Shown: positions 12,701 to 36,067 of the stretch, in pieces
Layout of the letters: each line of letters starts with the position of its first letter
Numbering within the stretch: the first letter of the stretch is position 1
Source of the DNA: Candidatus Latescibacterota bacterium
Lineage (GTDB): Bacteria > Latescibacterota > UBA2968 > UBA8231
Length of the DNA: 64,000 bases
NCBI GenBank assembly: GCA_965248265.1
Contig: CBDFJF010000002.1
Location: 3,904,001-3,968,000 of the forward strand
Direction of reading: 5' to 3'
Position numbers and translations under genes: made by a program
Notes under the pieces: model-generated
What the model was told of the DNA's origin: nothing
Database searches by the model: none
What the model saw: the letters and a program-made list of their open reading frames with translations, nothing else

Positions 12701-13520
12701 CAGCGGGTTCCAGGGGGACCTCACTGCGTAGGTACCCGACGTTGCGCAGGTCCGGCAACCCCAGGATGTGACCGTATTCATGGCTGATCGTTGCGGCGAG
12801 CACAGCATAGGATCGGCCGGCCTGAATCGTACCGTGTAGCACCTCGATCGGCTCACCCGATGCCCTTCGATCGGCCGTGACGAACGTCGGCTCGAGCCCG
12901 AGACTAGCCACTCCGGTGGCCGGTCCGAACAGGAAGTTCCGCGGCGCAGAACGCACAGCTATGAACACGACATCGACGAAGCCGTCGTCGTCGCCGGAGT
13001 CCGGCAAGCCGTCGGGACCATCGTTGTCGAATCGCGAGAAATCGACGTCCCGATCCGCCTTGCGAAGGATCTCCGACGCGAACACTCCGAAGTGGCCGCG
13101 CTCCGACGATGAATCGGAAAGGTATGCTGAGACTTCACTGTCGGATTCGTACCAGGTTGGTACCACCTCGCCGCGCAATGTGTGCACTCCAAACGACATC
13201 GTGTCGTAGAAGTGACTGACGCTGCCAGGTCGATCGGGATCGAAGAGGTCATCCGCCCAGTCGGGGATTGCCGTATCGGCAGGCAGTTCGTCCTTGAAAT
13301 GAGCGAAAAGAACAATCCCCGTACGAGTGGTAGCGACCTGAGCTTGAGTGGGCTTCGCTGGCCCATGGAGCTTCAGTGTAGCTGCATCCGTGGCCACATG
13401 GCCAACGCACACAAACTCATCGCCAGCCCAGACGTTCGTCGTGAGCACGGTACATAGCGGGATCAAGGCCTTGAGTGTAGCAGTTTTAGGCGATGGCAGC
13501 ACTCTGATTTCCTTCACCAA
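9774..13520 (-). CDS. M6 (immune inhibitor A-like) metalloprotease + WD40 repeats + C-terminal FlgD-Ig domain
   Basis: ISHEYGHILGLPDL zinc motif, GIGAWGLMGWG Met-turn; GHEDEVTAVAFSP...LWD repeats; IYPNPFN...WDGRNADGQSVASGVY. Confidence 0.9.
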   Translation of the reverse strand: MVKEIRVLPSPKTATLKALIPLCTVLTTNVWAGDEFVCVGHVATDAATLKLHGPAKPTQAQVATTRTGIVLFAHFKDELPADTAIPDWADDLFDPDRPGSVSHFYDTMSFGVHTLRGEVVPTWYESDSEVSAYLSDSSSERGHFGVFASEILRKADRDVDFSRFDNDGPDGLPDSGDDDGFVDVVFIAVRSAPRNFLFGPATGVASLGLEPTFVTADRRASGEPIEVLHGTIQAGRSYAVLAATISHEYGHILGLPDLRNVGYLRSEVPLEPAEDSAGIGAWGLMGWGALGWSGADGPNPFSAWSRSQLGWLERRRPTQRLSSMRLPPVEESGEIYEILLPNNERFLISNRQRSSAHYDRNMPAEGLLIWHFDPRRRGAQRVDLECADGKWRSSGFPKGTEANPETGKDNLDFWAHDERYTRDHAGNLGDDTDPFDGDRFRSFTPESNPSSASNDGWWRVRIEDIAFEAGGVATAQVEIEPLVKMDVRIRDENGDGVLVVGETAQIEFRLASWPNLTPWLQMEVTSEDTLITITDPVVDFHAGTPEQRIPNSWNDFEGELQAGMRFYDAAESKSTNGIPILEVKPGFVGIHAFRVNLSVYPRDKSRELLWMEQFPLEVVSSEPPRITRIAVVDSAGNGDGLVQAGEFIRLAVEVEGRAEMVDATSVRIRSLQEEAMPVPFPFSGFDEDDALGAGAIRSPEFLLASDLIPGTVLEFEIDFDSGYETSIDTLQLEVAAGGDRTPPRVLPFLTQSVPDGLSIVLPESRVTNAGPLEATGVIYSVGDTTQIATIALAKKAGRYEAIWRDATEETYLLKGIATDGAGNVTETPLHLVNMGGGQAGPLPGGVVELIVSAPVADLAYSPKGAQLAVATGTSIELYDPVSLRRTAVLNGHEDEVTAVAFSPNDPFLASGDAAGTVRLWDARSREQIAEFQGHESEGISGLVFSSVRPTLVSAGLDGSLDLWDVNERQKLATLRRDEPQPVMSLAMDPVGGNVLAAGSSDGSVAMWETTDHTLLAVLKSHRGEVASVAFNADGSRFVSAGRDRTARLRTGGGIYLALRQVLSEHDDWIEAAAFTPDGLGLATASLDGTIYLRRIDTSLSSVVKLTNAGGIRAIAFSPDGTQLTTGTWNGTLQFWQVWDESSADGLTTVTPKDAVLLPIYPNPFNQGTHLPFRVFRQSSVKIKIYDTLGQLVRELDVGDREPGLYAAPLQAAIWDGRNADGQSVASGVYVGVLVAGRAAVSQKMVVLR

Positions 13521-13642: not shown

Positions 13643-14874
<1,232 letters not shown>

Positions 14875-21333: not shown

Positions 21334-22485
21334 ATGACAGCTGTTCAGAAGTTGGCGCAACCATACAAGGAGGGTTCTGTTTTCTGGAAGGTGGGCAAGA
21401 TGCTCAGTCTGACCGCACCGCTCGTCGTTATCATCGCGCTCATCGTTTCATCCCCCTCCTGGTCTCAGGATAGCGAGGGGACGATAGAGATTGTCGAGTT
21501 CACAAGCTCCGCTCTGGAGTCCAACCTGATAGGTGACACGCCCACCCGTACCCTCATCGTCTACTTGCCACCTGGATACGAGACCAGCGGCCGGCGCTAT
21601 CCCGTGTACTACTTTCTTACCGCCTTCGGCATATCCTACTCGGTTGAGGGATGGCACGACCTCTTTCGCAACAATCTCCGGCCCCACCTTGATGGGCTGC
21701 TTGAGGATGGCAGGTCCCGGGAGATGATCACCGTCTTCATAGACGGGTTCAACCCCTTTGGTGGGAGCTTGTATGCCAGTTCGCCCGCCACCGGCGATTG
21801 GGAGTCCTTCGTAGTCCGTGAGCTGGTCGAGCACATCGATGCAACATACAGGACCATTTCACACAGGGACAGCCGAGGCATCGATGGCATCTCGATGGGG
21901 GGATTCGGCTCATTGCGCCTTGCGCTGAAGTACCCAGAGGTGTTCTGTGCGGTTGTGGCGCAGGGTGCCCCATTCGACTTGACAGCAGGGGGCTGGTGGG
22001 AAGGCGGTGCAACTCCCGAGGTTGACCCAGAAGACTGGGAAGATATGAACCTGCTCTCGGCCTTCGACCGCTTCTGGTTTGCTATGGCGGCTGCCTTTGC
22101 GCCCAATCCGGATCGCCCTCCCTTCTACCTCGACAGGCCGTACGAGCTCGTCGATGGGCAGGCGAGACCGGTACCCGAGGTGTTTGAGCGGATCTCGGAC
22201 ATGGACGTGTATGGTGAGCTGGACCGCTATGTTGCCCAGCCGACGAGGCTCAAGTCGATCATGATCCACCATGGTAGTGCAGACGAGGTCGTCCCTGTCA
22301 GCCAGGCACACGCCCTCGTTGCGCGCCTCACAGAGCTGGGGCTCGACCATGTCTACGAGGAGCACTCCGGGGGACACATCGCAATTCATGGACCCTCCAG
22401 GATCTTCTTCTCAGAGAACCTCTCATTCGAGAGCCCAACTGCGATCGCCAGTGACACATGGGGCGAGGTTAAGGCCCGCCACTGA
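21334..22485 (+). CDS. Secreted alpha/beta-hydrolase esterase with TWGEVKA tail
   Basis: GGAGG RBS; VYLPPGY, GISMGG nucleophile elbow, HGSADEVV, GGH; ends PTAIASDTWGEVKARH. Confidence 0.88.
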   Translation: MTAVQKLAQPYKEGSVFWKVGKMLSLTAPLVVIIALIVSSPSWSQDSEGTIEIVEFTSSALESNLIGDTPTRTLIVYLPPGYETSGRRYPVYYFLTAFGISYSVEGWHDLFRNNLRPHLDGLLEDGRSREMITVFIDGFNPFGGSLYASSPATGDWESFVVRELVEHIDATYRTISHRDSRGIDGISMGGFGSLRLALKYPEVFCAVVAQGAPFDLTAGGWWEGGATPEVDPEDWEDMNLLSAFDRFWFAMAAAFAPNPDRPPFYLDRPYELVDGQARPVPEVFERISDMDVYGELDRYVAQPTRLKSIMIHHGSADEVVPVSQAHALVARLTELGLDHVYEEHSGGHIAIHGPSRIFFSENLSFESPTAIASDTWGEVKARH

Positions 22486-22628
22486 CGTTGCTGGATGATG
22501 CAGGATACAACCGGATGACCGAGGTTATGGATGCTGCCGTGCGGTCAACGATTGTGGATGCAGAAGGCGGCAGCAGCATCGACCGATCCCAGACCCGGTC
22601 GATGCTGCTGCAATAGAGGCAACGCACC

Positions 22629-22706
22629 ATGAGCGAATCGCAGATCGGACTGAAAGGGTCACGCATCCTGCTGGTGGACGACCAGCCACGCCTGTTGGCG
22701 TCTTGA
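22629..22706 (+). pseudogene. Response-regulator receiver N-terminal stub
   Basis: MSESQIGLKGSRILLVDDQP followed by an early stop. Confidence 0.5.
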
Positions 22707-22906
22707 TCCTGCAACTCTTGGCGATCAATACGGGCAGTTTTCAGGTGATCATATGCGGGGCAGAGAAGCCAGGTGGGATTTAGATGGAGAGATTATGGAG
22801 AGAGCCCCCGAGACATGCACGCAACGTGGCGTCCAGAACGGACGAATGGGTTTCGAACTTGCCCCTGCAGGGCTCACAACCGCCTTTTCTACATTGACTT
22901 ACGGGG

Positions 22907-22974
22907 TGGCGGGAACGTGTGGGAATCGAACCCACCCAGCGCCGCTGTCGCGACACCGCAACGGATTTGAAGTC
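22907..22974 (-). pseudogene. selC: 3' fragment of tRNA-Sec (selC), att-like scar
   Basis: Reverse strand GACTTCAAATCC (TCA anticodon), long variable arm, GGTTCGATTCC, ACGTTCCCGCCA; 5' acceptor strand and D-arm are absent. Confidence 0.85.
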
Positions 22975-23204
22975 TGACGCTTTGTGTAACCCTCTTTGGA
23001 TTGTTGATCCAATGCAGCGGCCCGGTGGACTTATGCTCTAGTGGAGTCGTGGAAACGGGCAGAGACTGCAGCCGCTTCGTGAGCGAGGCCCAACGACCCA
23101 GTTCTGCTAAGCCAGCGAGAATCAGTCAAACCTGTGGTGCTCTGCGGGCATCTCAGTGATATAACGAAGCGCGGATCGGCCGTTCGGGCTCGAGTCCACT
23201 TGTA

Positions 23205-24413
23205 TTAGTGCAGCTGGTCCCAGTTGCGTCTAAGCAAAGGGCCTCTATTCTGGACGAGGGCGGCCAGAGCTCCGTTGTTGACCGCGACAATGTCACCAAA
23301 GTCCCTCTTATTTCCATGTATTCCGGCAGTGTGCAGCACTGCAAGTACCTGCTCGGCGTCCGCAAGTGCTTGCTGATGCTCCTCCACTGCGGAATCAAAA
23401 CTGACCGAGGCTGTGTCTGTGATCTGCTCGCGCAAGCAGTGCAGATAGTGTCGAAAAGCCTGTTGCTCTCCCAATCCTATGGATGAGGGTTGTGCACCGG
23501 TAAAAAGCGGAGAGACAAATTCGGACTCCATTGATGCTGGGGGTTGCATGGTCGCCAGCACTTGTGTGTTTTGGGCAAGATCTAGGAAGGGTATTGTGAA
23601 TTCAGACAGTGCCTGGGGACAGTAATACCAGGTAGTCCGCTGCCTGATTTCATCTTCATGCACCTGTTGGAACTTCTCGGGAGGAAACGAACGCACGTTC
23701 ATCCAGGTTCCGGAGCAAATTGCGTTTACTCCGGCAGCTGATGCGATGAGCATCTGGTGGTTGCAATACCCAATCACAACCTCAGAGTTTCTCAACCGCA
23801 ATCCCGCACACACGTCAAGAAGATTAGCAAGCCAATTCGGATCTGTCGTAAGGTAGTCTCCCCTCGGATGCTCCCAAACCAAATAGAAACCTGTGTCAGT
23901 CCATGCCTCTGATCGATCCATCAGCAATGCAATCTGCTCATTGTTACGTGCTGCATCAGCAGATAGAGCAATCGTCATGAGAATCGGTATGTCTCTCGAT
24001 TGAGCTCGGGCTTCCTCGAGTATTAGGCTGTGTATTGCAATCCAATCCTCATTCACTTCGTTAGCGAGTACACCCGGCAGGATGAATCTGTCTGTGGCCA
24101 AACGACGGTTTTCGCTCAATAGCTCACTTATCAGGAGAGCCAACCTTGGACCGTCCCAAAAAGTGCCGGTATCGTATTCATCGGGCCAGTAGAAATGAGA
24201 CCGAAGCCTCTCGTGAGAGGCGTGCGGGAGATAGAACTGTGGGTCAAGGAGCACGCGTCCGTTTGGGTGTTTCGTGATATCATCTGCCAACCTGTCTAGT
24301 TGGCCGGAATCGAGATCTCGAGGACTCAAAACTACTGTCCCACCTTCCCACCGCGCGACTAATTCGCGGCAATGTCCCATCATGCCGTGGCCAAACTGTA
24401 GGTATAACTCCAC
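23205..24413 (-). CDS. Hypothetical alpha/beta protein (possibly beta-protein/sce7725-like), third gene of the kinase operon
   Basis: 402-aa ORF; VVLSPRD, LLDPQFY motifs; AGGAG RBS overlaps the kinase stop; family guess is low confidence. Confidence 0.7.
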   Translation of the reverse strand: MELYLQFGHGMMGHCRELVARWEGGTVVLSPRDLDSGQLDRLADDITKHPNGRVLLDPQFYLPHASHERLRSHFYWPDEYDTGTFWDGPRLALLISELLSENRRLATDRFILPGVLANEVNEDWIAIHSLILEEARAQSRDIPILMTIALSADAARNNEQIALLMDRSEAWTDTGFYLVWEHPRGDYLTTDPNWLANLLDVCAGLRLRNSEVVIGYCNHQMLIASAAGVNAICSGTWMNVRSFPPEKFQQVHEDEIRQRTTWYYCPQALSEFTIPFLDLAQNTQVLATMQPPASMESEFVSPLFTGAQPSSIGLGEQQAFRHYLHCLREQITDTASVSFDSAVEEHQQALADAEQVLAVLHTAGIHGNKRDFGDIVAVNNGALAALVQNRGPLLRRNWDQLH

Positions 24414-24424
24414 CTTCTGTACTC

Positions 24425-25285
24425 CTATTCCTCGATGCCTTCCGCGGCACAGATTTCCTTGACCCAGACGAAAACGCCTTCGGCAGTAGTTGGCCGTTGA
24501 TCTCTGCGTATCTGCGTCAGAGACTGAACTAAGTCACCGAAACTATCCTCTTGCTCCATATCCACGGTGACCCTTGGCAGTCGTTGAGTCTCAACGCGCT
24601 TCAGGACGTCTAGATCATTTCTGGCGCCCAGCCTGAATGGATTCGTGCCAGTCGCACACTCGTAGATGGTTACACCAAGGGCGAAAAGATCTGCTCGGAT
24701 ATCGATGTCCGCTTTCACGTTCCGAAACTGCTCTGGGGGGGCATAGCCGGGAGTGAATTTCCCAAAAGGGTTGCCAGACGGTGTGTGCGAGGTGAGCTCC
24801 AGATGACGCGAGATTCCGAAATCAAGCAACCAGAAATCGCCAACGTCATCATGAATGATGTTTCCTGGTTTAATGTCTCGATGAACGATCTCGTTCTCCT
24901 CGGCAGCAACAAGGGCCTCCAACATTTGGCGAGATAGACGAAGTAGTGCGAGAGCCTGCATTGGGCCAGATGCCGACAGCTCTGCGCTAACCGGGGAACC
25001 AGGGATCCGTTGCTCTAAGAGAAAAGAGCACAGGCCAAACGGGGCGCTGATTTGACCGTACTCGAGAATTGGTGGGACCCGACTTGAACTGACACGCTGA
25101 ACCGCCCGAATCTCCCGCGCCACAGATTCGGCATCCTGTGTCGGCTTGATGATCTTGAGTACGATGTCGCCGTGATCAGGATGAGTTGCCGAAAACACCC
25201 ACTTTTGCCCCCCAGGCGTCAGAGCTGTCACGTTGTCAAGAGAGGGAAACTCGTTCCTCACCCACCCGGCGGACAGCTGCATCAC
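24425..25285 (-). CDS. Stand-alone Hanks-type Ser/Thr protein kinase
   Basis: GGQKWV, VLK, HRDIKPGN, DFG, TPGYAPPEQ, DLFALG. Confidence 0.93.
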   Translation of the reverse strand: MMQLSAGWVRNEFPSLDNVTALTPGGQKWVFSATHPDHGDIVLKIIKPTQDAESVAREIRAVQRVSSSRVPPILEYGQISAPFGLCSFLLEQRIPGSPVSAELSASGPMQALALLRLSRQMLEALVAAEENEIVHRDIKPGNIIHDDVGDFWLLDFGISRHLELTSHTPSGNPFGKFTPGYAPPEQFRNVKADIDIRADLFALGVTIYECATGTNPFRLGARNDLDVLKRVETQRLPRVTVDMEQEDSFGDLVQSLTQIRRDQRPTTAEGVFVWVKEICAAEGIEE

Positions 25286-25950
25286 AATCTTCCGCTATAC
25301 AGAGCTGCGCGCCAGGAGGACTCGTTAAACACCCAAGAGGCGTGAGAACGAGGGGAGCCAATCCGAGGACTTTTGGATATATCAATTACTCCCGTGCCTG
25401 GACAGATGATGCCGACTCCGTGTGCTTCAGCGACATCCGCAGCTCGCGAAGCGACGGGCGAAGGAACCAAAATGTAGGAGCTGGTGGCGAACCATGTATT
25501 CAAGAACGCCTGTCTTACAGCCGATCGCCAGTCCCCGATCTTGGCCTCAAAAGCCACAATCTGTCTGATGGCGTAGTTGTGGGAAATGCTTCGCGGCTTG
25601 ATAAGACCGCCCGAGATTTGGATTGTGTCTGCGTACAACAGGTGCTCCAGAATCCTGTCGAGGCTTGTTGGAAAAACTGAACGCAATCCCTCGTACCTGC
25701 ATGCCCCACGGCCTGTCAGATAGTGTAACACACGAAGTGTTGACGGATTCAGGATCGCCCGCAGGGCCGACCACCGGCGGGTAACTCCTGGTGACCATAC
25801 AACCACTACCACATCTGGGTAGCCCGAGTCGATCCGCGGTTCACAGAATACAGTCGTTTCGCAGTCTCGCGGAATTCGAACTCGCTGTTCGGCAAGAAAC
25901 CATCGTACCATCTCGGTCTCCGGCCCCTCCCGAGGGCGTCGGAACGCCAT
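25282..25950 (-). CDS. PD-(D/E)XK nuclease-like protein with inserted winged helix
   Basis: E...PDVVVV...AFEAKIGDWRSAVRQA...SYILVP...GVGII; stop overlaps the kinase start; the start could lie further upstream (up to 26019). Confidence 0.7.
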   Translation of the reverse strand: MAFRRPREGPETEMVRWFLAEQRVRIPRDCETTVFCEPRIDSGYPDVVVVVWSPGVTRRWSALRAILNPSTLRVLHYLTGRGACRYEGLRSVFPTSLDRILEHLLYADTIQISGGLIKPRSISHNYAIRQIVAFEAKIGDWRSAVRQAFLNTWFATSSYILVPSPVASRAADVAEAHGVGIICPGTGVIDISKSPRIGSPRSHASWVFNESSWRAALYSGRL

Positions 25951-26246
25951 CCCAAACTCTTCTCCATGCTCGTAGTCAATAATCCATGGCTTCGTTGCCG
26001 AATCCATCACTTGGACCAAAACCCGACTCCCCTTCTACATAGTGAGAGCTGCTGTGTACCTCGAATATACCCCGGCTCGTGTTTCCTTGACAATGAAATA
26101 CAAACTGCTCGTACCAGCGCAGATCGCCACTTCTGGCCGACCGTCAGTCGAACATCCGATGCTCGGCGAGCATCGTTGTCTTGCAACGACAATCCGTCAC
26201 ACTGGGGAGGGCAGGTCGATTCGATTGACAGGCGCGTGACGACGGC

Positions 26247-27098
26247 TCAGAAGCCGCCAGATGCTCGGGGTGCGGCGATCGGGTGATTTGCATTGAGAGC
26301 TGCGATCGCTTCTACAAGCTGCTGAGGACGTGCGTGAGCATATCGCAACGACATTTCCATTGTCCGGTGTCCCATCACTTGCATGATGCGATCTATGGGT
26401 ACACCTCGGTCTCGTAGGCGGGTAGCTAGGGTATGGCGTAGCATGTGTAGGTGGACGTGACCGACGTTAGCCCGCATTCCGGCACTGTGCAATGACCTCT
26501 TGATGTCCCCGAACACGATGACACGTTGTTCGGGTTCCGTCAGCTCGGGCTTCAACCTCATCAACATCGATCGGACCCGATCCGTCATAGGGATCACTCT
26601 GTAGTCCTTATTCTTGGACTGTCGCACGGTCACGGTGCCGGTCTCGAAATTTACATCGCGCCAGGACAGTCGTTGGAGCTCGGAGCGCCTCATTCCCGTG
26701 TCCGCTGCCATAATCACAACCTGCCGGGTACGCTCCGGACATTCGGCGATCAGCGCATCTAGCTCATGATCGCTCAGTGCGTCCGGCACACGGCTCTGTT
26801 CCTTGAGCATAGAGAGCCTTGTCGTGGGGTTGTCTGATATATAGTCCCAGTTGCAGGCTGTCTTGAACAGCGTCTTCAGGGTCGCCAGATAGCGATTGGC
26901 TGTGGCCGTGGTGATTCCGTCAGTGTTGCGCCGGCGCGTCAGGTATCGCTCGATCTGGCGTGTGGTGATGGAATCCAGAGAATGGCCCCCGAACTCCTCA
27001 TCGAGCTTCCTGAGCATTCCGGACAGGCCTCGCCAGGTATTGGGGCTCCAACCTCCGAAATCAGTGCGAAACTCGCTAAGGAACTCACCGAATGTCAT
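26247..27098 (-). CDS. Tyrosine recombinase/integrase, no evident N-terminal arm-binding domain
   Basis: Catalytic set intact: TGMRRSE, K, HMLRH, MGH, RY. Confidence 0.92.
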   Translation of the reverse strand: MTFGEFLSEFRTDFGGWSPNTWRGLSGMLRKLDEEFGGHSLDSITTRQIERYLTRRRNTDGITTATANRYLATLKTLFKTACNWDYISDNPTTRLSMLKEQSRVPDALSDHELDALIAECPERTRQVVIMAADTGMRRSELQRLSWRDVNFETGTVTVRQSKNKDYRVIPMTDRVRSMLMRLKPELTEPEQRVIVFGDIKRSLHSAGMRANVGHVHLHMLRHTLATRLRDRGVPIDRIMQVMGHRTMEMSLRYAHARPQQLVEAIAALNANHPIAAPRASGGF

Positions 27099-27251
27099 GC
27101 GGATCCGCGTCTATTGAGGGAATCTGGCCGGACAGGAGTCGTGACCTCCGATCCGGCCAGAACAGAAAAACGGGCGCCATAACCGGTGGTCACGACACCC
27201 GCATTCAGTGCTGCTACTGTCATCTAAAACTAGAGATCCGCGGCGACAGCG

Positions 27252-27839
27252 TCAATGATTTCGGCTGGATTTTGCGTACCTCATCGCCGTGCCCGGCGCG
27301 ATGCCCAGTTGCTTGGCGATGTCACGGTATGACAGCCCGCCAGAGCGTAAGGCTCGGACCTTGGACTGCTTGGTCAGCGGGATCTGCTTCCGTCCTACAT
27401 GCTTGCCCCTTGCCTTGGCAGCCGCCATTCCAGTCTTCACCCGCTCGCGGATCATTTCCCGCTCGAACTCGGCGATTCCGGCCAGAATGGTGAACGTCAA
27501 TTTCCCAGCCGCCGTGGACGTGTCGATCTGCTGTCGGAAGCTGATGAAGTCCACCCCAAGCTGCTGAAACTCTTCGAGCGTGTTCACTAGGTGAGACGTG
27601 CTGCGGGCGAAGCGATCGAACGCCCATACGAGCACGAGATCCACCTTGCCTGTCCGAACTTGCTCCAGCATCTGATCGAGCTCTGGACGCTGTCTGGCGG
27701 TTCCTGAGGCCTTATCAATGTATTCCCCGACAACCTCGAACCCACGGTGGTTGGCGTATTCCCGCAGCTCGTCCACCTGGCCGTCCACGTCTTGATCGGT
27801 GGTCGAGACTCTGTAGTAGATCGCGGCGCGCTTGGCCAT
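27252..27839 (-). CDS. Serine resolvase/invertase with C-terminal HTH
   Basis: YYRVST.DQ, SG...RPEL, DRFARS, AEFEREMIRER. Confidence 0.95.
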   Translation of the reverse strand: MAKRAAIYYRVSTTDQDVDGQVDELREYANHRGFEVVGEYIDKASGTARQRPELDQMLEQVRTGKVDLVLVWAFDRFARSTSHLVNTLEEFQQLGVDFISFRQQIDTSTAAGKLTFTILAGIAEFEREMIRERVKTGMAAAKARGKHVGRKQIPLTKQSKVRALRSGGLSYRDIAKQLGIAPGTAMRYAKSSRNH

Positions 27840-27858
27840 GATCTGCCCCCTTCGTAAG

Positions 27859-27887
27859 GTGTATGAAAAGGTATAGGTTTCTAGACG
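27859..27887. promoter_or_regulatory. Possible res site I upstream of the resolvase
   Basis: GTGTATGAAAAGG-TATA-GGTTTCTAGACG, an imperfect dyad around TATA. Confidence 0.35.
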
Positions 27888-27976
27888 ATCAAATCAAAGA
27901 AAAACCGCGTTGCGCCACAAGGCGCTGAAGCGGTCGCTGCTGCTACCCTTTTTGAACGCGAAAGACAGGAGCCCTT

Positions 27977-28318
27977 CTAAGGCTCGTCGATGCGCTTGAA
28001 CAGTCGGCGCACGATATCCCTCGCGAATCGGACATCCTCCGCGCTTCGCACTCTCAGGATGTCAACGAGCTCCTGAAGCTCCTGCTCCACGGTTGAGCCT
28101 GGAGCCGCTGCAGGGGTAATCAGATCCGCCACGGTCACATTCAGCACTTGCGCGAGCTGTTCCAGGGTCTCGAATGACGCCGTTGATTTTTCCCGTTCAA
28201 TTGCCCAAACGCTGTCCACGCTGATCTGGGATTCCTCGGCAAGTTGTGCCTGGGTCAGACCTCTGGCCTTTCGGTATCTCTTCAGTTGATGGCCGATTGT
28301 CTGTCTGATTTGGCTCAT
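27977..28318 (-). CDS. XRE-family HTH regulator
   Basis: LKRYRKARGLTQAQLAE...IERE...TLEQLAQVLNV. Confidence 0.9.
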   Translation of the reverse strand: MSQIRQTIGHQLKRYRKARGLTQAQLAEESQISVDSVWAIEREKSTASFETLEQLAQVLNVTVADLITPAAAPGSTVEQELQELVDILRVRSAEDVRFARDIVRRLFKRIDEP

Positions 28319-28457
28319 CCCTCAAGCTCCCATTCGTCCCGCATGGAACGAAGTTAGGGTGCGCTGATGAGCCCAGGCAGATGATCATGCTACGTATTTT
28401 GTTTATGAAATACTTGATTAGACTCAGGGTGCAAGTGTTTATTACCGGACACAACTA

Positions 28458-29201
28458 ATGTCGAACGTGAGAGGTTGCGTGTCAGAGATCACTAAGCATA
28501 TAGGGATTGCGATCAACGATGCAGATGCTGGCAGAATCACCTATCAGCATCTACTAAAGATCTTCCAAGAGGCAATTGATAATGGTGACATTCTCCTCGA
28601 AGAAAACGAGCTGTACGTAGTAGGTACTGTCTTGCCCCTTTTGGATCGGGATGTTCTAAAGAGATCTCCCTACGTTGACGATTTCGAGGCAAGGATGAAT
28701 GCCACTTTGCAGGGGTGGATTCGCAATCGTCAGGACGCAACTGCTGGTATGGGTTCCAATTCAGACGTCACCGTCTCGTCCGAACCGACCGAGGTGGCTC
28801 CATTGGAATCTGAACCAGACGTTGCTCACCAAGTTGTGAAACGCAAACGGACGCTGTTGCTGAATGTACTCATCGTCGCAGCACATATCGCCATAGCAGC
28901 GTTGACAGGAAGTCCCTGGGTGATGTTCAGTGGGTTTCTCCTGCTTGCGGTGGGGATTCGCTGTGCAACGCTCTGCTGGTTGAGGTTCACGCGTGCAGAG
29001 TCAGAGAGGCCATCCCTCGTGTTCATTCTTGCCAATTTGGTTCTTGGAATACTTTTCGCCTCAGTTCTTCTCTGGTTCCTTTGGTGGCTCGGCCGCTTCT
29101 GGCTACCCGGCATCAAGATACTTGCCCCCGCTATAGCGGTTTTCGTGGCGTACAAGTCAACCTTCCCGTTAGGACCATCCAGACAGGACACACAAACATG
29201 A
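28458..29201 (+). CDS. Hypothetical protein with C-terminal 4-TM region
   Basis: Soluble N-terminus followed by four hydrophobic segments; divergent from the XRE gene. Confidence 0.65.
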   Translation: MSNVRGCVSEITKHIGIAINDADAGRITYQHLLKIFQEAIDNGDILLEENELYVVGTVLPLLDRDVLKRSPYVDDFEARMNATLQGWIRNRQDATAGMGSNSDVTVSSEPTEVAPLESEPDVAHQVVKRKRTLLLNVLIVAAHIAIAALTGSPWVMFSGFLLLAVGIRCATLCWLRFTRAESERPSLVFILANLVLGILFASVLLWFLWWLGRFWLPGIKILAPAIAVFVAYKSTFPLGPSRQDTQT

Positions 29202-29271
29202 GTCCGCTACCGCCCTGAAAACACCATCCGGACATCGAAGGCCCGACGAAGTCACATCGATCACCACAAAC

Positions 29272-29883
29272 TCATTCGTGTTTGGTCCTCAACAGCTCCA
29301 CCACTTCCTCGACCGTGGCCAGCCTGTGCTTCATCGAGAATTCCTCCAACCAGGCCGCAGCCTGCAGGCTGTGCTGGTAAGCCTCATCAGGACTGATCTG
29401 TTCCTCGATTTGCTTCAGCGCAGCAGGACCAACGATCCCGTGAAACTTCGCCAGGCGCTCGATCGACGGGTGCCGGTTGTGGAACTTGATCGACACGCCG
29501 TCCTTCGTGTCCGTCACACTGGAGATACACCTGCGGATCTCCACTGGCACTGATTCGAGATCCTTCACCACGACACCCCTGGAGCTGAACGAGAGCACTT
29601 CGAGGGGGTCCAGAGAAGCCTGGTCCGAGTCTAGCTTCAGCACTTCTGCCCTACTCAGATGCGTCTCCTGCTCGACCTTCTCAGCCACCTGTGCCTGCAG
29701 ATATTGAAGTCGGGCCTGGATGATGTCATTTGATTTCAGGCGAGAGGCATTCCCTCGATTGTCCTTGAACCCCGCGAGCCGGTAGGCCTCGTCGGCTGAT
29801 TTGCCTTCCAGGAGGTGGAGACAGAATTGTTCGCGTCTCTGGTTGGGTAGGGGCTTTGAGGGGGTAGGGACAAGATCAGTCAT
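29272..29883 (-). CDS. Terminase small subunit-like protein
   Basis: LPNQRREQFCLHLLEGKSADEAYRLAGF...ASRL...IQARL; IKFHNR...LAKFHG. Confidence 0.8.
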   Translation of the reverse strand: MTDLVPTPSKPLPNQRREQFCLHLLEGKSADEAYRLAGFKDNRGNASRLKSNDIIQARLQYLQAQVAEKVEQETHLSRAEVLKLDSDQASLDPLEVLSFSSRGVVVKDLESVPVEIRRCISSVTDTKDGVSIKFHNRHPSIERLAKFHGIVGPAALKQIEEQISPDEAYQHSLQAAAWLEEFSMKHRLATVEEVVELLRTKHE

Positions 29884-29949
29884 GACGGCCTTCTCCGTGG
29901 CGACAAGCGCGCGTAGTGAACTCTACTACTAAGATACAGGCCGTGCCTG

Positions 29950-31998
29950 TTGTGGGCTAGCCTCCATGCTCAGGAGCGTGTCAGCCATGCTCTCAGCCAT
30001 CTGCCGCCTCGCTCACGGGCTTCCCAAGCCATGTTGTGTTATAGTTCTGTTGCTCCAGATGATGCCCTGCTCACCTGGCCCCCCGCGCGCTCGGCCTTGG
30101 CCCCGCTTCTTCCTCTCAGCGCGGGCCTCGTATGCCGGAACAACAGCATGGATCTTGGCCCCACCACCTTCGATGATCCGCACATAAAGACTGCGATCCT
30201 CGGGGCGATACGCGAAGGTGAAGACCTTCCCTTTACTTCCGAGTTGGATCAAGCCCTCTCCACAAACTGGCGAGGATTTGAGAGTTCGACCAAGCCCCTG
30301 GCTGCCCTGCAGAGCATGCTTCGACATGAGGATGTTCCGCGCCTGCTAGAGCATTCCCAAGGACCTCCCCTGAAAGCGTTCCGGGCCTTGTGGCACTCCG
30401 GCCTCTTCCGCAAGGCTCGAGAGCTCGCTCAGGACTCAGAGCTGGGCATCGGGGTGCCTTCCACTCCCACTTCGACCGTGCGTTCTGCTGGGCCACATAT
30501 ATACACTCAGCCTCAGGAGGAAGGATTCGCTGATGCAGAAACCCTGTCGGAGTGGGGAATCTGGGGCATTTCGGCGGAGGCGCTAAGACTCATGAGGGAC
30601 GTGCTCATTCGGGGGTCGCTACCGTGGGTTCTACGATCGAACATACTGCTCACCGGACCCGAAGGCACGGACAAACTGAACGTCGCTCGAGCCCTGCACG
30701 CCCTCAGAAAACGGGGACACTTCGAGATACTCGACTGCCGGTGTATCGAGTCAGACCCAAGCGAGCTGATCCAGGCGTGTGTAGCGGGTGGGACCGTTTT
30801 CCTTAGGGGCCTTGAGTTAGTGCCTGCGCAGTGGGGAGCAGCCGTTTACGAGGCCGTGGCGCCAACGCACAAACTAAGAGGAAAAGAAGCTTCTATTCGT
30901 GAAGACGAAGCGATTCACATCGCTGACACTCTATTCATCGTGGACGTAAGCAATCGATATGCACACGGGGTAGCGGGCGCGCTCTGCCGCCAAGGTCACT
31001 GGGACGAGGTGGGAATGCCGCCCCTCTCGCAGCGTACGGCAGACATTCCACTCCTGGTGAACCAAGCTCTACTGAGACACGGAGTGCCAAGCCCGATAGA
31101 CGAGAGCCGCCATCGTTTCGCCGTTGCGTTGTGGGAGTTCTACGAGGAACATGAGCCACCAGGCGACAGTGCTTGGCTGGAGAGCGAGATAAAACGATGG
31201 CTGGGGTTTCTGGCGCCCGCGACATTGCCGGCACAGAGCGATCCCGTAAGTGAATCCACGGACACACTTATGGACGAACAATCAGAGTGCGTTTTCAGAC
31301 ACGCAGACAACCGATGGGAATTCGTGTTTGAGGGCATGAGACGCGATGTGGCCGTGGCCCTAGATGGATTCCGTTATATACGGTATTTACTGAAAACAGG
31401 GGGCTGGGAAGGGGGAGTGTCGGCTACTGACGTCCGAGCCTGTAAGATCAGCCGCGAGGTGGCGGGCTACGAGGACGAAGCAACGCGCCAAACGGACAGA
31501 GCCATCAGTGAAGGTAAGATGCAGAGTGACAGGACCCAGGTCGCTCGCCATATCACCGGGATGGTGCCCGACGACCCAGAGGACGACTCCTCATTGAGTG
31601 AGGGTGAATTGGATGAGGGTGATAACGACGGGAAAAGGGTAGATCGTGGCGAAATTACGGATCCTCAGACAGTAAATGTCGTCACAAAGGGGATTGCGGA
31701 CATCGAAGAGGAACTAAGGATAGAGGAAATGGATCGAGAGAAGCGAGAACAACTGGAAGAAAAGAGAATCCAGCTCAAACGCTATCTCAGTGAGAGCACT
31801 GGCCTTGGTGGTCATCCGCGCAAATTTTCGGAACAACAGAAGAAAGATCGGGATGCTGTGAGGAATGCGATCGGGCGAGCGAAGAAGCTTCTAGATATGC
31901 ACCATCCGATTCTTGCAGGACACATCCACAGCTACGTGCACTACTCGGGGGGTACCTGGCACTATACGCCCCCCAAGCCCCTCGACTGGCACACCTAA
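29950..31998 (+). CDS. Degenerate sigma54-activator-like AAA domain fused to a C-terminal putative DNA-binding domain
   Basis: ILLTGPEGTDKLNVARALH, GGTVFL, MPPLSQRTADIPLL; C-terminal GLGGHPR...RDAVRNAIGRA...HPILAGHI; the true start may be ~30148. Confidence 0.65.
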   Translation: MWASLHAQERVSHALSHLPPRSRASQAMLCYSSVAPDDALLTWPPARSALAPLLPLSAGLVCRNNSMDLGPTTFDDPHIKTAILGAIREGEDLPFTSELDQALSTNWRGFESSTKPLAALQSMLRHEDVPRLLEHSQGPPLKAFRALWHSGLFRKARELAQDSELGIGVPSTPTSTVRSAGPHIYTQPQEEGFADAETLSEWGIWGISAEALRLMRDVLIRGSLPWVLRSNILLTGPEGTDKLNVARALHALRKRGHFEILDCRCIESDPSELIQACVAGGTVFLRGLELVPAQWGAAVYEAVAPTHKLRGKEASIREDEAIHIADTLFIVDVSNRYAHGVAGALCRQGHWDEVGMPPLSQRTADIPLLVNQALLRHGVPSPIDESRHRFAVALWEFYEEHEPPGDSAWLESEIKRWLGFLAPATLPAQSDPVSESTDTLMDEQSECVFRHADNRWEFVFEGMRRDVAVALDGFRYIRYLLKTGGWEGGVSATDVRACKISREVAGYEDEATRQTDRAISEGKMQSDRTQVARHITGMVPDDPEDDSSLSEGELDEGDNDGKRVDRGEITDPQTVNVVTKGIADIEEELRIEEMDREKREQLEEKRIQLKRYLSESTGLGGHPRKFSEQQKKDRDAVRNAIGRAKKLLDMHHPILAGHIHSYVHYSGGTWHYTPPKPLDWHT

Positions 31999-32050
31999 CC
32001 CCGACCCAACCTCCCCGAACCACAGACTCCGACAGTCGTCTGATCCTGGG

Positions 32051-32093
32051 CGCGACGCCTCACGTAGCGCCCCGCGACGCACCACGTAGCGCC
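32051..32093 (+). repeat. Two 21-bp direct repeats with a 22-bp period
   Basis: CGCGACGCctCACGTAGCGCC / CGCGACGCacCACGTAGCGCC. Confidence 0.8.
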
Positions 32094-32422
32094 TACAAAG
32101 GGAGAGTCGAATGACCCTGGCGACGCGCGAGGTGCTTCTGCTTACCCAAGTGCTGGCAGATCGCACGCGCCGCGAGCCACGTGGTGAATCCAACTACAGA
32201 TGCATTGACGAACGGAGGCTGAGATGGTGAAGGACGGAAGAAACGGTATCGGCATCGATCTGGACAAAGATGATCGGTTCGAGCGATTCGATCGTGGCTT
32301 GGATCACCTGAGATGCCACAGAAGAGATCTTTCATGCGACAGCGCTGTGTTGATCGTCGAGGAGCGCTGTTTCAAAGCTCGAAAATCCCAGCGGTCCGGC
32401 TGTAACAGGTTCAGAGAACCTA

Positions 32423-32929
32423 ATGACTGAACATCACGACACAGACCCCAGCCCGACTTTCACCCCACACTGGGCCGACGACCTTTTCGGCCACATTGAC
32501 GAGGTGTTGGACGTGATAGGGCAAGCTACCCGGGAATGCCCCATCCGGTCAGTGGAACTCGCCAAGAAACTTGACCTCGGCTGGGAGGAAATTTGGGCCA
32601 TCGTGTGTCACTTGCAGTCGGTTGCGGTCCCAGTCCGCAATGACGGTTATGGATTCTGGTTGGGCGAGACGATGGCGGACAACGGTGAATCACTCATGGA
32701 GAGGGATGCACTTCACGCTACAGGAGGAATGGAGGTGGATCAACGGATCGAGAACAGGCACGGCAGGCGGCGGTACGTCAACCACTCGGAGAGCGCAGCC
32801 TACCTGAAGACCACCGAAGGGCGGGTTGTGGCAGCGCCTGCGCCGCGGCGAGCTACCCTACTCAAGCTCGGGAAACGGTCCTCCTGGATCTCAATGAGAT
32901 TGACAATGTGCTCCAACGTCACCGCATAG
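32423..32929 (+). pseudogene. wHTH ORF running into a frameshifted excisionase-like HTH_17 gene
   Basis: PIRSVELAKKLDL...GYGFWL, then RRYVNHSESAAYL + LWQRLRRGELPY + KLGKR + LLDLNEID, which require three indels to join. Confidence 0.55.
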
Positions 32930-32980
32930 AACGGTCGAACGACCGGGGACTTTCACCCACACGAAGATGGAGAATGCAAG

Positions 32981-33577
32981 ATGTCCAAGCAGGAAGCACA
33001 AAAAAGCACAGAAGACAAGGACACGGAGGTAGCTCAGTTCGACCTGAACGCAATTCGCATCAACCCCGAAAACCTGAACGGTGAGGTGGCGCGGAAGCTG
33101 CTCACGACCGTCCCTGTCCAGAAACCAGGCAAGCACGTGTATGTCCGCGTGCACCCAGACCCAACGTATCGGATTGACACGGCTGTCTTCCAGTTCGATA
33201 ACGACCGCGAGTACTACCTAGTTCTGCCAGCAGCGCAGAGCTACTTCCCCACGGATATCCAGTTTGTCACGCTGTACACGGCGATCACCAGGTCTGGGGA
33301 CGTCTTCTTGTGGCCGGTTAGGTTTCCAGATGAGAGTCGCCGTGGCGGCGGTAGGGATTGGCATCAGACCGCCAGGCTCGCCGCCGAGCATGCGCAGTCC
33401 TTCTGGATCAGGGTCCAGGCGAATATGAATGTGGGGCGGTACGACATCCACGAGGCGATCGATCAGCTGGCAGATCCGGTGTGGCCGGACTGCTCTTTCG
33501 AGCGCCTCGTTCAACTTGCATTTAACGACGATCGGATTGTCAACCGTGAGGACCACATGGTCATTCGGATGCTATAA
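32981..33577 (+). CDS. Hypothetical PolA-associated protein
   Basis: LTTVPVQKP...VRVHPD...FLWPV...W...W.RV...P.WPD; lies immediately 5' of the polymerase gene. Confidence 0.75.
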   Translation: MSKQEAQKSTEDKDTEVAQFDLNAIRINPENLNGEVARKLLTTVPVQKPGKHVYVRVHPDPTYRIDTAVFQFDNDREYYLVLPAAQSYFPTDIQFVTLYTAITRSGDVFLWPVRFPDESRRGGGRDWHQTARLAAEHAQSFWIRVQANMNVGRYDIHEAIDQLADPVWPDCSFERLVQLAFNDDRIVNREDHMVIRML

Positions 33578-33590
33578 GGGCGATTGTAGC

Positions 33591-35357
33591 ATGCAGTCGC
33601 ACCTGTCACAGTTCGAGGAAGTCTGGCTGGCAGACTTCGAATTCCAAGCGCCGCCAGGAGGCAAGCAGGTCCCTATCTGTTTGGTGGCGCGCGAGTTCTT
33701 TTCGGGCATGGTGATCAGGATCTGGGAAGACGAGCTACATCGACTCGCCGATGCGCCCTTCCGTACGGATCCACGCTCACTGTTCGTGGCCTACTTCGTC
33801 AGCGCAGAGCTGAGATGTTTTCTGGCGCTGGGATGGAAGGTGCCGACGCGCATTCTCGATCTGTATGCAGAATTTCGTGCCGCCACCAACGGCCGCAGGG
33901 TGCTCCCCGCTGGTAGGGGGCTTTTGGGCGCACTGGTCTACCACGGACTGGACTCTATCGAGGCCAACGAAAAAGATGCAATGCGCGCACTGGCGCTACG
34001 GGGTGGTCCCTGGACGGAATGTGAACGGACCGCACTGCTGGAGTATTGCGAATCAGATGTTTGGTCGCTCGACCGCTTGTTGCAAGCGATGGGGGCCGAG
34101 ATAGACCTCCCGCGGGCGCTCTACCGGGGCCGATACATGGCTGCAGTTGCCCGCATGGAGTCTAATGGGATTCCTATAGATGTGGAGGCGCTTGCCACCC
34201 TCCAGGCAGATTGGGAGAAGATACAAGTTGAATTGATCAGTGAGGTTGACAAGAAGTATGGGGTGTATAGGGGCACATCGTTCAGCCACGCGCGCTTTAA
34301 GGCTTGGCTTGAACGGCAGGGCATTCCCTGGCCCCGGACTGATTCCGGCCGCCTTTCTGTTAGCGATGAGGCGTTCCGGTCAATGGCTCGCGCCTACCCA
34401 GAGATCGCCGCGCTGCGGGAACTGCGGACGACGCTGGGGCAGTTGCGCCTGATGGACCTAGCCATTGGCGTTGACGGTCGAAACCGTGCCCTGCTCTCGC
34501 CCTTCAACACCCGCACCGGTCGCAATTCCCCCAGCACGACCAAGTTCATCTTCGGCCCGGCTGTGTGGCTCCGGTCCTTGATCCGGCCCGAGCCTGGCTT
34601 CGGGCTGGCCTATGTGGATTGGAGCCAACAGGAATTCGCCATCGCGGCGGCTCTATCTGGGGATGAGAACATGCGTGAGGCATACCGCAGTGGAGACCCG
34701 TACCTCAGCTTCGGGAAACAGGCAAGAACCATTCCCTTGGACGCCACGAAGGAGTCCCACAAGGAAGAGCGCAACCTGTGCAAAGCCTGCGTACTGGGCG
34801 TGCAGTACGGCATGGGATCTCGAACGCTGGCGGCATCTCTTGGCCGAGGGGCTAACGGCGTGGGAGTTTCCCGGCTGCAAGCCCACCAGCTGCTCTCTCT
34901 CCATCGTACCACTTACAAGCGGTTCTGGGAGTGGGTCGAAGGTCGGCGGGATGCCGCCATGCTGCACGGACGTCTAGATACGTGCTTCGGCTGGCCGCTC
35001 TTTGTCGGTTCCGATGCCAACCCCCGAGCGCTGATCAACCATCCCATGCAGTCCCATGGTGCTGAGATGATGCGCGTTGCGGCGATCCTGGCGACAGAGA
35101 GGGGGATTCGGATCTGTGCTCCTGTCCATGACGCTTTCCTGATTGAGGCACCGCTGGCGCAATTCGAAGGCGTAACGGCATCCATGAGTCAGGTCATGCG
35201 GGAGGCTGGCAACATTGTCCTCGACGGCTTCGATGTGCGATGTGACGTTGAGCCGGTGCGGCATCCGGAGCGATACCGCGATCCACGAGGTGAAGAGATG
35301 TGGCAGGCAATCTGGCGAATTGTATCACGTCTTCACAGGTCAACTGACCGCACCTGA
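33591..35357 (+). CDS. Family A DNA polymerase (3'-5' exonuclease + polymerase, no 5' nuclease), element-encoded
   Basis: ExoI ADFEF, ExoIII YCESD, TRTGR, motif A VDWSQQE, motif B RNLCKACVLGVQYG, motif C VHDA. Confidence 0.9.
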   Translation: MQSHLSQFEEVWLADFEFQAPPGGKQVPICLVAREFFSGMVIRIWEDELHRLADAPFRTDPRSLFVAYFVSAELRCFLALGWKVPTRILDLYAEFRAATNGRRVLPAGRGLLGALVYHGLDSIEANEKDAMRALALRGGPWTECERTALLEYCESDVWSLDRLLQAMGAEIDLPRALYRGRYMAAVARMESNGIPIDVEALATLQADWEKIQVELISEVDKKYGVYRGTSFSHARFKAWLERQGIPWPRTDSGRLSVSDEAFRSMARAYPEIAALRELRTTLGQLRLMDLAIGVDGRNRALLSPFNTRTGRNSPSTTKFIFGPAVWLRSLIRPEPGFGLAYVDWSQQEFAIAAALSGDENMREAYRSGDPYLSFGKQARTIPLDATKESHKEERNLCKACVLGVQYGMGSRTLAASLGRGANGVGVSRLQAHQLLSLHRTTYKRFWEWVEGRRDAAMLHGRLDTCFGWPLFVGSDANPRALINHPMQSHGAEMMRVAAILATERGIRICAPVHDAFLIEAPLAQFEGVTASMSQVMREAGNIVLDGFDVRCDVEPVRHPERYRDPRGEEMWQAIWRIVSRLHRSTDRT

Positions 35358-35423
35358 TTTGGGGGCGGACCACACCTGGTTCGGTGGCCCCCCATTCTTA
35401 ATACTGAGTCTTGTATGAGGTAA

Positions 35424-35819
35424 GTGAGAATCATGGCACGGATGAACGAGAAAGTGTTAGCAACACGCTGGACCGCGGATATGGCATCCCAGCAACGCGA
35501 ACGGGTTAGGGCCAAAGAGGTCGGCGCAACGGCACGGAGACCGGATACGCCACGCGGGGGATACATCGCCAACACGCCGATTCCGTGGATAACCCAGGCC
35601 GCTGGGACCACCTTGATGGGACTACGGATGGCGCTAGCCCTGCTCCATCTGCGGGGCATGAGAAAGAGAGACTCTTTCATCCTCGCGGTTCCAAAGCAAT
35701 GGGCGACCGTCATGCCCCGCGCCCACCGATACAAAGGACTCAGGGCTCTAGAGAAAGCAGGGTTGGTGCAAGTGGAGCGCAGGATGGGGATGCGCCCAAC
35801 CGTCACGCTATTGATCTGA
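35424..35819 (+). CDS. Small wHTH-like hypothetical protein
   Basis: RYKGLRALEKAGLVQVERRMG.RP.V C-terminal wing. Confidence 0.65.
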   Translation: MRIMARMNEKVLATRWTADMASQQRERVRAKEVGATARRPDTPRGGYIANTPIPWITQAAGTTLMGLRMALALLHLRGMRKRDSFILAVPKQWATVMPRAHRYKGLRALEKAGLVQVERRMGMRPTVTLLI

Positions 35820-35875
35820 GACGACGGGGACGAAATAGGCATCCCGCGCCCTATGCGCAGCTTTGAAGGTGAGAA

Positions 35876-36067
35876 ATGAGAATCCAGGATTGCAGAGTAG
35901 GCCAAGTCGTAAGTATGAAGGACGGCGAGGACTATTTGGTAGGTGACGTCGTCGGGCTCAGCCCCGAGCGCGTTCGCGTCAAATTCAGGAACCGGAAGAA
36001 ACCCAAACCCATCAGTGTTGACCCCCGCCGTATCTGGTCGATGGAGGACCAGCTCAGTCTATTCTGA
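35876..36067 (+). CDS. Small SH3-like hypothetical protein
   Basis: 63 aa, GAAGGTG RBS, VGQVV...GDVV...VRVKF. Confidence 0.55.
   Translation: MRIQDCRVGQVVSMKDGEDYLVGDVVGLSPERVRVKFRNRKKPKPISVDPRRIWSMEDQLSLF

Follow-up and report, generated by a model that had tools for sequence, protein, structure and literature searches.

A conserved trio of genes for a predicted nuclease, a Hanks-type kinase and a barrel protein of TGT-like fold in a Latescibacterota bacterium: a candidate anti-phage system

Hanks-type serine/threonine kinases are found in the loci of several prokaryotic defence systems. PD-T4-6 is a one-gene system, and the kinases of Pgl/BREX type 2 (PglW), MADS (Mad6), TerY-P and Stk2 are large multidomain proteins. 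A PD-T4-6 protein of Streptococcus thermophilus has further modules after its kinase domain, according to passages of PMC11514479. Relatives of the tRNA-guanine transglycosylases (TGTs) have also been recruited to immunity: PMC10164549 describes TGT homologues used for DNA marking in the Dpd system, passages of PMC12839542 propose a DNA-marking role for TGT homologues in the BREX-related BRC systems, and 10.1101/2025.04.06.647259 describes how the remodelled TGT fold of Cap10, in type IV CBASS, serves immunity through protein deazaguanylation. A locus that may combine both kinds of protein lies in a stretch of 64,000 nucleotides (the window) from Candidatus Latescibacterota bacterium (GenBank assembly GCA_965248265.1, contig CBDFJF010000002.1, positions 3,904,001 to 3,968,000 of the forward strand). 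It consists of three genes, g1, a kinase gene and g3 (Table 1), which encode a predicted PD-(D/E)xK nuclease with an inserted winged helix, a Hanks-type kinase and a protein with a predicted TGT-like fold. The trio is read here, with a probability of about 0.68, as one self-contained, horizontally mobile candidate anti-phage (anti-invader) system, because its genes are conserved as a unit, are spread without taxonomic order, have defence genes as neighbours, are mobile and keep invariant motifs, and because the kinase and g3 are modelled as a complex.

Scans with Pfam, NCBIfam, PHROGs and PADLOC found no named multi-gene defence system that covers the trio. The PADLOC check matched the kinase alone, in keeping with the initial annotation, which had not recognised the trio as a named system, and no description of the trio was found in openly licensed PubMed Central (PMC) papers and bioRxiv main texts, although a recent name may exist. 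Nor is it described in the passages of PMC12839542 and 10.1101/2025.10.29.685425 examined. The nearest named item is PD-T4-6, for the kinase only: the best PADLOC model for the window kinase is that of PD-T4-6 (PDLC04042, E-value 4e-36), which it matches nearly over its full length (residues 22-278 against profile positions 17-272 of 292). Models of 35 PADLOC kinase families match the window kinase, which also gives matches, far below the cut-offs, to the models of mad6, MkoA, PglW and PknB, so the PD-T4-6 match reflects the Hanks fold and not a specific family, although an automatic PADLOC run would probably label the gene PD-T4-6. The trio differs from that single-gene system in that g1 and g3 accompany the kinase in 69 of the 71 loci with room for the trio, and from the protein of S. 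thermophilus in that the trio kinase is bare and has no extra modules.

With Pgl/BREX type 2, MADS, TerY-P and Stk2 the trio shares a Hanks kinase in a defence locus, presumably as switch or effector, but the large kinases of these systems contrast with one that is a kinase domain only. The trio kinase matches Mad6 with an E-value of 4.3e-30 in PADLOC and reaches 88.2 bits against an NCBIfam cut-off of 460; for PglW it reaches 64.7 bits against a cut-off of 990. The conserved unit contains no methyltransferase, PglZ, vWA/TerY protein or PP2C phosphatase and lacks the PglX/PglZ and Mad partners of BREX type 2 and MADS, and g1 and g3 have no Pfam match and folds other than those of the vWA and PP2C partners of TerY-P. 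The partners known from Dpd and type IV CBASS (DpdB, DpdC, Cap9/QueC-like proteins and the CD-NTase) are not conserved beside the trio, and no description found of these two systems or of BRC gives a TGT-like protein both a kinase and a nuclease as partners, as in the trio. The trio is an apparently unnamed kinase-containing candidate defence system with a new set of partners and two unannotated protein families; also new are the predicted fold of g3, similar to those of TGT, DpdA and Cap10, and the predicted binding of g3 to the kinase.

The initial annotation had loosely compared the first and third genes with the sce7726/sce7725 pair, whose two proteins, one mid-sized and one small, are uncharacterised. 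This comparison was dropped: the models NF033831 and NF033832 match neither g1, g3 nor any other protein of the genome, none of 27 g3 relatives and none of 41 g1 relatives match them at E-values up to 10, and no members of these families were found in 401 genomes of the phylum of genome G001.

Each of the three genes has hundreds of homologues, and all three are genuine. Relatives of g3 number more than 1,000 in a database clustered at 90% identity, with 53-60% identity among the matches listed, and a full HMMER scan with g1 found 487 representative clusters at E-values of 1e-30 or less and 1,022 at 1e-10 or less; a word-indexed search with g1 had given only 6 matches. A pattern scan of one genome per species (185,579 species) yielded 116 relatives of g3, and 80 loci on genome contigs were kept (numbered here with the prefix L, as are loci from other sources). 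Among these 80 loci, phmmer detected g1 in 69 and the kinase in 73, both without exception ahead of g3 and sharing its strand, in the order g1, kinase, g3 and with short gaps or overlaps. Nine of the loci lack room for the two genes, which takes some 1.9 kb or more of upstream sequence; in the remaining 71 the complete trio is present in the same order and orientation 69 times, and the two exceptions (L071 and L079) are C-terminal remnants of g3 only. The flanks are variable, 484 flanking open reading frames (ORFs) falling into 453 clusters, and no fourth conserved gene was found among them. The trio is a strict, self-contained unit; the initial annotation had proposed to check whether its genes stay together, and they do.

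The unit is also widely scattered. Its carriers belong to the Acidobacteriota, Planctomycetota, Myxococcota, Desulfobacterota, Pseudomonadota, Actinomycetota, Bacillota, Chloroflexota and other phyla, and g3 identities of 35-60% across them follow no taxonomic order. Cultivated, non-pathogenic carriers include Desulfosarcina widdelii PP31 (L017), Nannocystis punicea FL3 (L025), Ralstonia sp. A12 (L051) and Bacillus mycoides SIN2.2, on its plasmid (L112). The whole trio is present, in order, in all four plasmid records matched (g3 identity 26-32%), namely two from Bacillus, Polaromonas pPNAP03 and one from the haloarchaeon Natribaculum breve, and in all four IMG/VR contigs; g3 has no match in the phages collection. 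The RefSeq labels of the plasmid genes are hypothetical protein, serine/threonine-protein kinase and hypothetical protein, and in the ESM Atlas g1 and g3 match only unnamed clusters of hypothetical proteins. Pairwise distance matrices of the three proteins over 66 loci are correlated with one another (r 0.83-0.84, Mantel p 0.001), g3 being the most conserved (mean distance 0.53) and g1 the least (0.66).

A distant trio (32% g3 identity) on the Bacillus mycoides plasmid NZ_CP128131.1 (L112, 4494-9141) is directly followed by genes for a small serine recombinase and a site-specific integrase. These recombinases are of the same two types as those beside the trio of the window, but stand on its opposite side, and in some lineages a small cassette with recombinase genes may be the vehicle of the trio. 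A relative of the window integrase itself lies within 6 kb of the trio in only 4 of the 80 loci. Some copies of the trio look decayed: L063 (3086-6879) has about 1.9 kb between the kinase gene and an N-terminally truncated g3, a Bacillus bombysepticus plasmid (L113, 5995-7182) has g3 split into two ORFs, and both L055 and L070 have shortened ORFs for the kinase and g3.

Genes of defence systems are over-represented beside the trio. Among its immediate neighbours, 26 of 144 match a PADLOC model at E-values of 1e-5 or less, spread over 21 loci, compared with 5 of 123 control ORFs called in the same way, all five being matches to generic domains; the Fisher odds ratio is 5.2 (p 4e-4), with controls drawn from the window outside its island and from housekeeping tgt loci, a small set from genomes other than those of the trio loci. 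At E-values of 1e-10 or less, 19 of 135 second neighbours match. The neighbouring genes include AbiEi/AbiEii pairs (L010, L015), restriction-modification genes of type I (L029, L072), a type II pair (L035) and type III methyltransferases (L068, L081), TIR proteins (L005, L016, L020, L033, L036), HEC-01A/B (L053), a PLD-helicase with a PDC-S02/type IV nuclease (L074), Cas10 (L071) and CBASS-type phospholipases (L059, L068). Two loci, L073 and L075, show the order PglX, g1, kinase, g3, BrxHI, PglZ, with the trio therefore embedded in a BREX operon, and L054 has a BrxHI gene two positions downstream of the trio.

The kinase matches PF00069 over residues 29-269 of 286 (1.6e-25; 90.5 bits, cut-off 31.7), with no other domain, so that its earlier description as a bare Hanks kinase is accurate. 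It has the catalytic lysine, the alphaC glutamate and the HRD, DFG and APE motifs. In an alignment of 73 sequences, K44, E58, H135-R136-D137, K139, N142, D155 and G157 are at least 97% conserved, as are T168 of the activation loop and E185. Judged by these residues, the kinase is catalytically intact.

The protein encoded by g1 was modelled with AlphaFold2 at a mean predicted local distance difference test score (pLDDT) of 93.5. Residues ~88-150 of the model form a winged helix, which aligns structurally with MarR/RPA32-type domains (Z 8-9.3), and the core has fold matches to Cdn1 (8z4i, Z 8.4, 117 residues aligned), NucS (2vld, Z 8.4, 95 aligned, 22% identity), VC1899 (Z 8.1) and Can2 (Z 7.9), values close to background, at which two structures may have no more than their general arrangement in common. 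Foldseek gave nothing for g1 at E-values of 1e-3 or less, its best matches being Cdn1 (3.3e-3) and VC1899 (3.9e-3). At least 97% conserved in 73 sequences, down to systems of 26% identity, are E34, D69, V71, E158, A159, K160 and Q170, and P68 is invariant in an alignment of 41 sequences (A2); the conserved signature is E...(P)D...(D/E)xK. A further conserved motif, near the C-terminus of g1, includes P223, S225, S228 and W229. The initial annotation had read PD...ExK motifs split by a winged helix-turn-helix (wHTH) domain from the letters of the sequence, and the confident model, the fold matches and the conserved signature agree with it. Thus, g1 is predicted to be a PD-(D/E)xK nuclease with an inserted winged helix. 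Its core aligns with the nuclease domains of the CARF-nucleases Can2, Card1 and Cdn1 and of NucS, and keeps their catalytic signature E...D...ExK, but unlike the CARF-nucleases g1 has no CARF or other ligand-sensing domain, and its winged helix is inserted inside the nuclease fold. The window protein has no family match in Pfam, NCBIfam, PHROGs or PADLOC, and a profile-based sequence search of the PDB gave only weak wHTH matches.

The third protein, described initially as an unassigned alpha/beta protein, likewise has no family match in Pfam, NCBIfam, PHROGs or PADLOC, but its class can be given more specifically as a triosephosphate isomerase (TIM) barrel with a TGT-like fold. The AlphaFold2 model (pLDDT 85.6, predicted template modelling score 0.88) consists of a (beta/alpha)8 barrel and, C-terminal to it, a helical region. 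Its closest matches by VIA-align are the archaeosine TGT ArcTGT (1iq8, Z 19.5, 308 residues aligned, root-mean-square deviation 3.7) and a bacterial TGT (3unt, 18.5), followed by QTRT2 (6fv5, 15.8), DpdA (7ui4, 15.1) and Cap10 (9ntn_B, 14.3). In a search against representatives the top five chains were all of the TGT family, with 267-308 residues aligned, and the best Foldseek matches are also TGTs; unrelated TIM barrels score 13.4 or less. In fold, g3 therefore resembles DpdA and Cap10 more than it does generic TIM barrels, but no homology to them was found with sequences or profiles. A profile-based sequence search of the PDB gave chance matches only, a CxCxxC zinc-site motif is not visible in the g3 alignment, and no fused, longer forms were seen among proteins of 705-2010 residues, an absence that is weak evidence.

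Residues of g3 that are at least 97% conserved include Q6, G8, S30-P31-R32-D33, D57-P58-Q59, Y177, Y216, G235, N239, R241, F243, E271, D278, H322, R370 and W398; D33 and D57 are invariant, as is a polar face of the barrel. In the model, Q6-x-G8, S30-P-R-D33, D57-P-Q59, Y177, Y216 and G235...N239-x-R241-x-F243 cluster at the C-terminal ends of the barrel strands, as expected of an enzyme pocket. The most conserved motif, SGTWMNVRSFPP, spans residues 234-245 and is probably a mobile loop, with a pLDDT below 50 at residues 236-253.

The kinase and g3 are predicted to bind each other. One complex job, in which three chains were given as alignments and the kinase was set as partner against g1 and g3, returned a score of 0.82 (runs 0.87, 0.82 and 0.82), compared with 0.34 for the best of 3 controls. 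In the calibration of the method, 116 of 157 solved complexes and 2 of 215 mismatched pairs attained the score mark, with a set-up that differs from the alignments and three chains used here. Agreement between the runs is 96% of contacts or more, and the partner has a pLDDT of at least 82. Every listed contact is between g3 (residues 162-169, 200, 204 and 388-396) and the kinase (residues 235, 250-265 and 274), and the interface takes in the conserved residues R390 of g3 and R264 and W274 of the kinase. From their position after the APE motif, the interface residues of the kinase would belong to the final C-lobe helices, at a distance from the catalytic cleft. The model thus supports the binding of g3 by the kinase.

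A mechanism can be proposed on this basis, although its individual steps are held with less confidence than the defence unit as a whole. The kinase, which has no sensor domain of its own, would form a stable complex with g3, in which its C-lobe meets the conserved C-terminal 'RGPxLRRxW' helix of g3; the two would act as a pair for sensing and regulation, with g1 as the effector that cuts DNA. By analogy with TGT-fold enzymes, the pocket for sensing or catalysis would be that of g3, and would probably take a nucleobase or nucleic acid. Infection would switch the kinase on, and phosphorylation would license g1, a putative PD-(D/E)xK nuclease guided by its winged helix, to cut DNA, either that of the phage or that of the cell itself (abortive infection). 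Protection against phages, the targets of g3 and g1 and the substrate of the kinase are what we infer from the evidence above. The initial annotation had suggested a phosphorylation-controlled nuclease or abortive-infection module; its defence part is supported by the context of the trio, and its mode of control is retained as a proposal only.

Several results weigh against this interpretation. No contacts between the kinase and g1 are listed in the complex model, and the step from kinase to nuclease is purely one that we infer. The correlations of protein distances could partly reflect shared descent and not functional coupling. The enrichment of defence genes was measured with the small control set from other genomes, 118 of the 144 immediate neighbours have no PADLOC match at all, and some of the matches are to generic domains such as those of methyltransferases and helicases. 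The link between g3 and the TGTs is one of predicted fold: none of 27 g3 members match PF01702 (TGT) at E-values up to 5, the PADLOC DpdA model does not match g3, and hhalign of g3 against an alignment of 23 TGTs from the phylum of the window gave a probability of 0.4% in local mode and nothing in global mode.

A bolder version of the defence reading, which we put forward tentatively, is that a TGT-fold enzyme, bound and controlled by the kinase, performs nucleobase chemistry as the immune act itself, which the nuclease then completes. This chemistry could be base excision or exchange on the invading DNA, or a conjugation to protein like that of Cap10.

The alternative that survives best, though we consider it unlikely, is that the trio resembles a restriction-modification system, in which g3 would be a DpdA-like marker of DNA with 7-deazaguanine or another base, g1 would cut unmarked DNA and the kinase would be an on/off switch, the role proposed for PglW in Pgl/BREX type 2. 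By fold, g3 comes closest to the TGT family, of which the DNA preQ0 insertase DpdA is a member, and TGT homologues serve DNA marking in Dpd and are proposed to do so in BRC; but g3 has no sequence-level homology to TGT or DpdA, and a tight kinase-g3 complex, as predicted here, is foreign to the known Dpd systems. The modification partner is usually more conserved than the restriction partner, and the distances of g3 and g1 stand in this order; g1 also has a DNA-binding wHTH domain. The genome of the window has Tgt and two QueC genes, but no DpdB-, DpdC- or QueC-like gene is conserved beside the trio, full-length QueC is present in only six of nine trio-carrying genomes tested (three being metagenome-assembled genomes), and a closed chromosome of 8.8 Mb (G432) has no QueC though Tgt is present; salvage of the base is possible in these genomes.

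Two further explanations fit the data less well. It is improbable that the trio is an addiction or stabilisation module of the toxin-antitoxin kind, or a regulatory cassette, in which g1 would be a toxin restrained by the kinase and g3 and would favour retention of the island or plasmid. The trio does occur on an integrative element, on plasmids and on IMG/VR contigs, its genes are tightly coupled in translation, and recombinases adjoin it in two unrelated hosts; however, relatives of the window integrase are seldom near it, as given above, its flanks are mostly chromosomal and variable, and the enrichment is for defence genes, including sites inside BREX operons. Many defence systems are also addictive, so that this explanation overlaps with that of a defence system. 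A housekeeping or stress-signalling operon, such as a kinase-regulated enzyme that modifies tRNA or nucleotides with no role in conflict, is very improbable: TGT-fold enzymes are mostly tRNA-modifying and Hanks kinases regulate many cell processes, but the trio has a patchy and rare distribution (the 116 pattern-found relatives among 185,579 species, one genome each) with no taxonomic coherence, is single copy with a canonical tgt elsewhere in the same genome, always has an intact nuclease attached and stands in a context of mobile elements and defence islands.

The arrangement of the trio in the window agrees for the most part with the initial annotation, whose account of the layout is confirmed with one correction. 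The three co-oriented ORFs are all present on the minus strand. The stop codon of g1 (TGA, 25284-25282) overlaps the GTG start of the kinase gene (25285-25283), which gives the claimed translational coupling by a 4-bp overlap, and the claimed ribosome-binding site overlapping a stop is TAGGAG, which contains the stop codon TAG of the kinase gene and lies 8 nucleotides ahead of the GTG start of g3 (24413). The trio was also correctly placed behind an integrase: the tyrosine integrase gene is 227 nucleotides upstream on the same strand. The claim that the trio is more AT-rich than its flanks is true, but the difference is modest rather than strong, with a GC content of 0.50-0.56 across 23500-25999 compared with 0.57-0.62 in most of the flanking windows of 500 nucleotides. 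The end of the trio, given as 25950, is probably too short, for the likely start of g1 is TTG 26019, because GGGGAG lies 8 nucleotides upstream of it and residues 15-36 are conserved among homologues; the g1 call of the source annotation (P0121, 209 amino acids) is too short. The promoter-like site ~45 nucleotides upstream of g1 was the sole site found, with 2.2 expected by chance from shuffled sequences, and is weak evidence.

Table 1. Positions of the trio, of the carrying island and of other features in the window
Feature	Position	Strand	Remarks
g1	25282-26019	minus	245 aa; predicted PD-(D/E)xK nuclease core with wHTH insert; likely start TTG 26019
Kinase	24425-25285	minus	286 aa; bare Hanks-type Ser/Thr kinase
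g3	23205-24413	minus	402 aa; predicted TIM barrel of TGT-like fold with C-terminal helical region
Promoter-like site	26064-26093	minus	TTGTCA, 18 nt, TATATT; ~45 nt upstream of g1
Tyrosine integrase	26247-27098	minus	PF00589, 2.3e-27; context gene of the carrying element
Serine recombinase/resolvase	27252-27839	minus	PF00239, 3.2e-50; context gene
tRNA-Sec 3' fragment	22911-22991	minus	81-nt match to Rfam RF01852, 31.9 bits, below the gathering score of 47
Small-terminase-like gene	29272-29883	minus	PF03592; phrog_51, 1.3e-18; within the island
Family-A DNA-polymerase-like gene	33429-35357	plus	PF00476, 1.4e-22; within the island
Two tRNA-Thr genes	36225-36445	facing each other	CGT and TGT anticodons; far end of the island
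IS3-type element	13643-14596	minus	ALIL pseudoknot RF01497 (101 bits) overlapping an rve-family transposase ORF
HEAT-ARM repeat match (PADLOC)	9774-13520	minus	7.8e-21; outside the island
HEAT-ARM repeat match (PADLOC)	48776-50050	plus	7.4e-12; outside the island

The trio is carried by an island that extends from the tRNA-Sec fragment, directly downstream of g3, to the pair of tRNA-Thr genes. The 5' half of the fragment is without pairing, and 70 nucleotides of it are 100% identical to the 3' part of an intact tRNA-Sec gene on the other contig of the genome (C1); the fragment is probably the remnant of an attachment site at one end of the island. The remnant and the intact gene are thus on separate contigs, a hint of rearrangement, of integration at a secondary site or of a problem in the assembly. 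This observation concerns positions 22911-22991 of the window and 1470-1568 of L002. Both tRNA-Thr genes are called by ARAGORN, and Rfam at gathering score gives only the one on the minus strand. No direct repeats bounding the island were found within 20-40 kb.

In addition to the trio, the integrase and the resolvase, the island contains a gene for an XRE-type helix-turn-helix regulator, an ORF of 247 amino acids with no Pfam match, a protein of 682 amino acids with a weak AAA+ match, and the polymerase-like and small-terminase-like genes. The ORFs scanned include none for capsid or tail proteins, and this gene content suggests a phage satellite or a degraded prophage. Given these genes, the initial annotation was fair in describing the trio as cargo behind an integrase, here that of an integrative or satellite-like element. 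Outside the island, the insertion sequence of the IS3 type, ~9 kb away, has a programmed-frameshift signal, and the two HEAT-ARM repeat matches are probably generic.

The sequence of the window is present in four sequencing runs of one sample in one study, with no RNA run listed. In these runs no contig joint that skips the island was found across 21500-37500. The assembly contig that carries the trio breaks at ~22935-22945 and at ~26189-26439 in all four runs, the depth of the integrase segment is higher in most of them, and a T>C variant is present at 26400, which suggests strain or copy variation at the junction of the trio and the integrase (region 22945-26274).

If the trio protects against phages, it would be a widespread three-gene addition to the catalogue of prokaryotic immunity, with two of its three protein families lacking any annotation. 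The proposed mechanism, if true, would give a function to a bare kinase that receives its sensor in trans, and would extend the recent recruitment of TGT-fold enzymes to immunity, as seen in DpdA and Cap10. If the TGT-fold enzyme itself performs the immune act under control of the kinase, protein phosphorylation would be joined with transglycosylase chemistry in immunity, a combination that we found nowhere described. The invariant residues of the three proteins and the predicted interface of the kinase with g3 make these hypotheses directly testable by mutagenesis.

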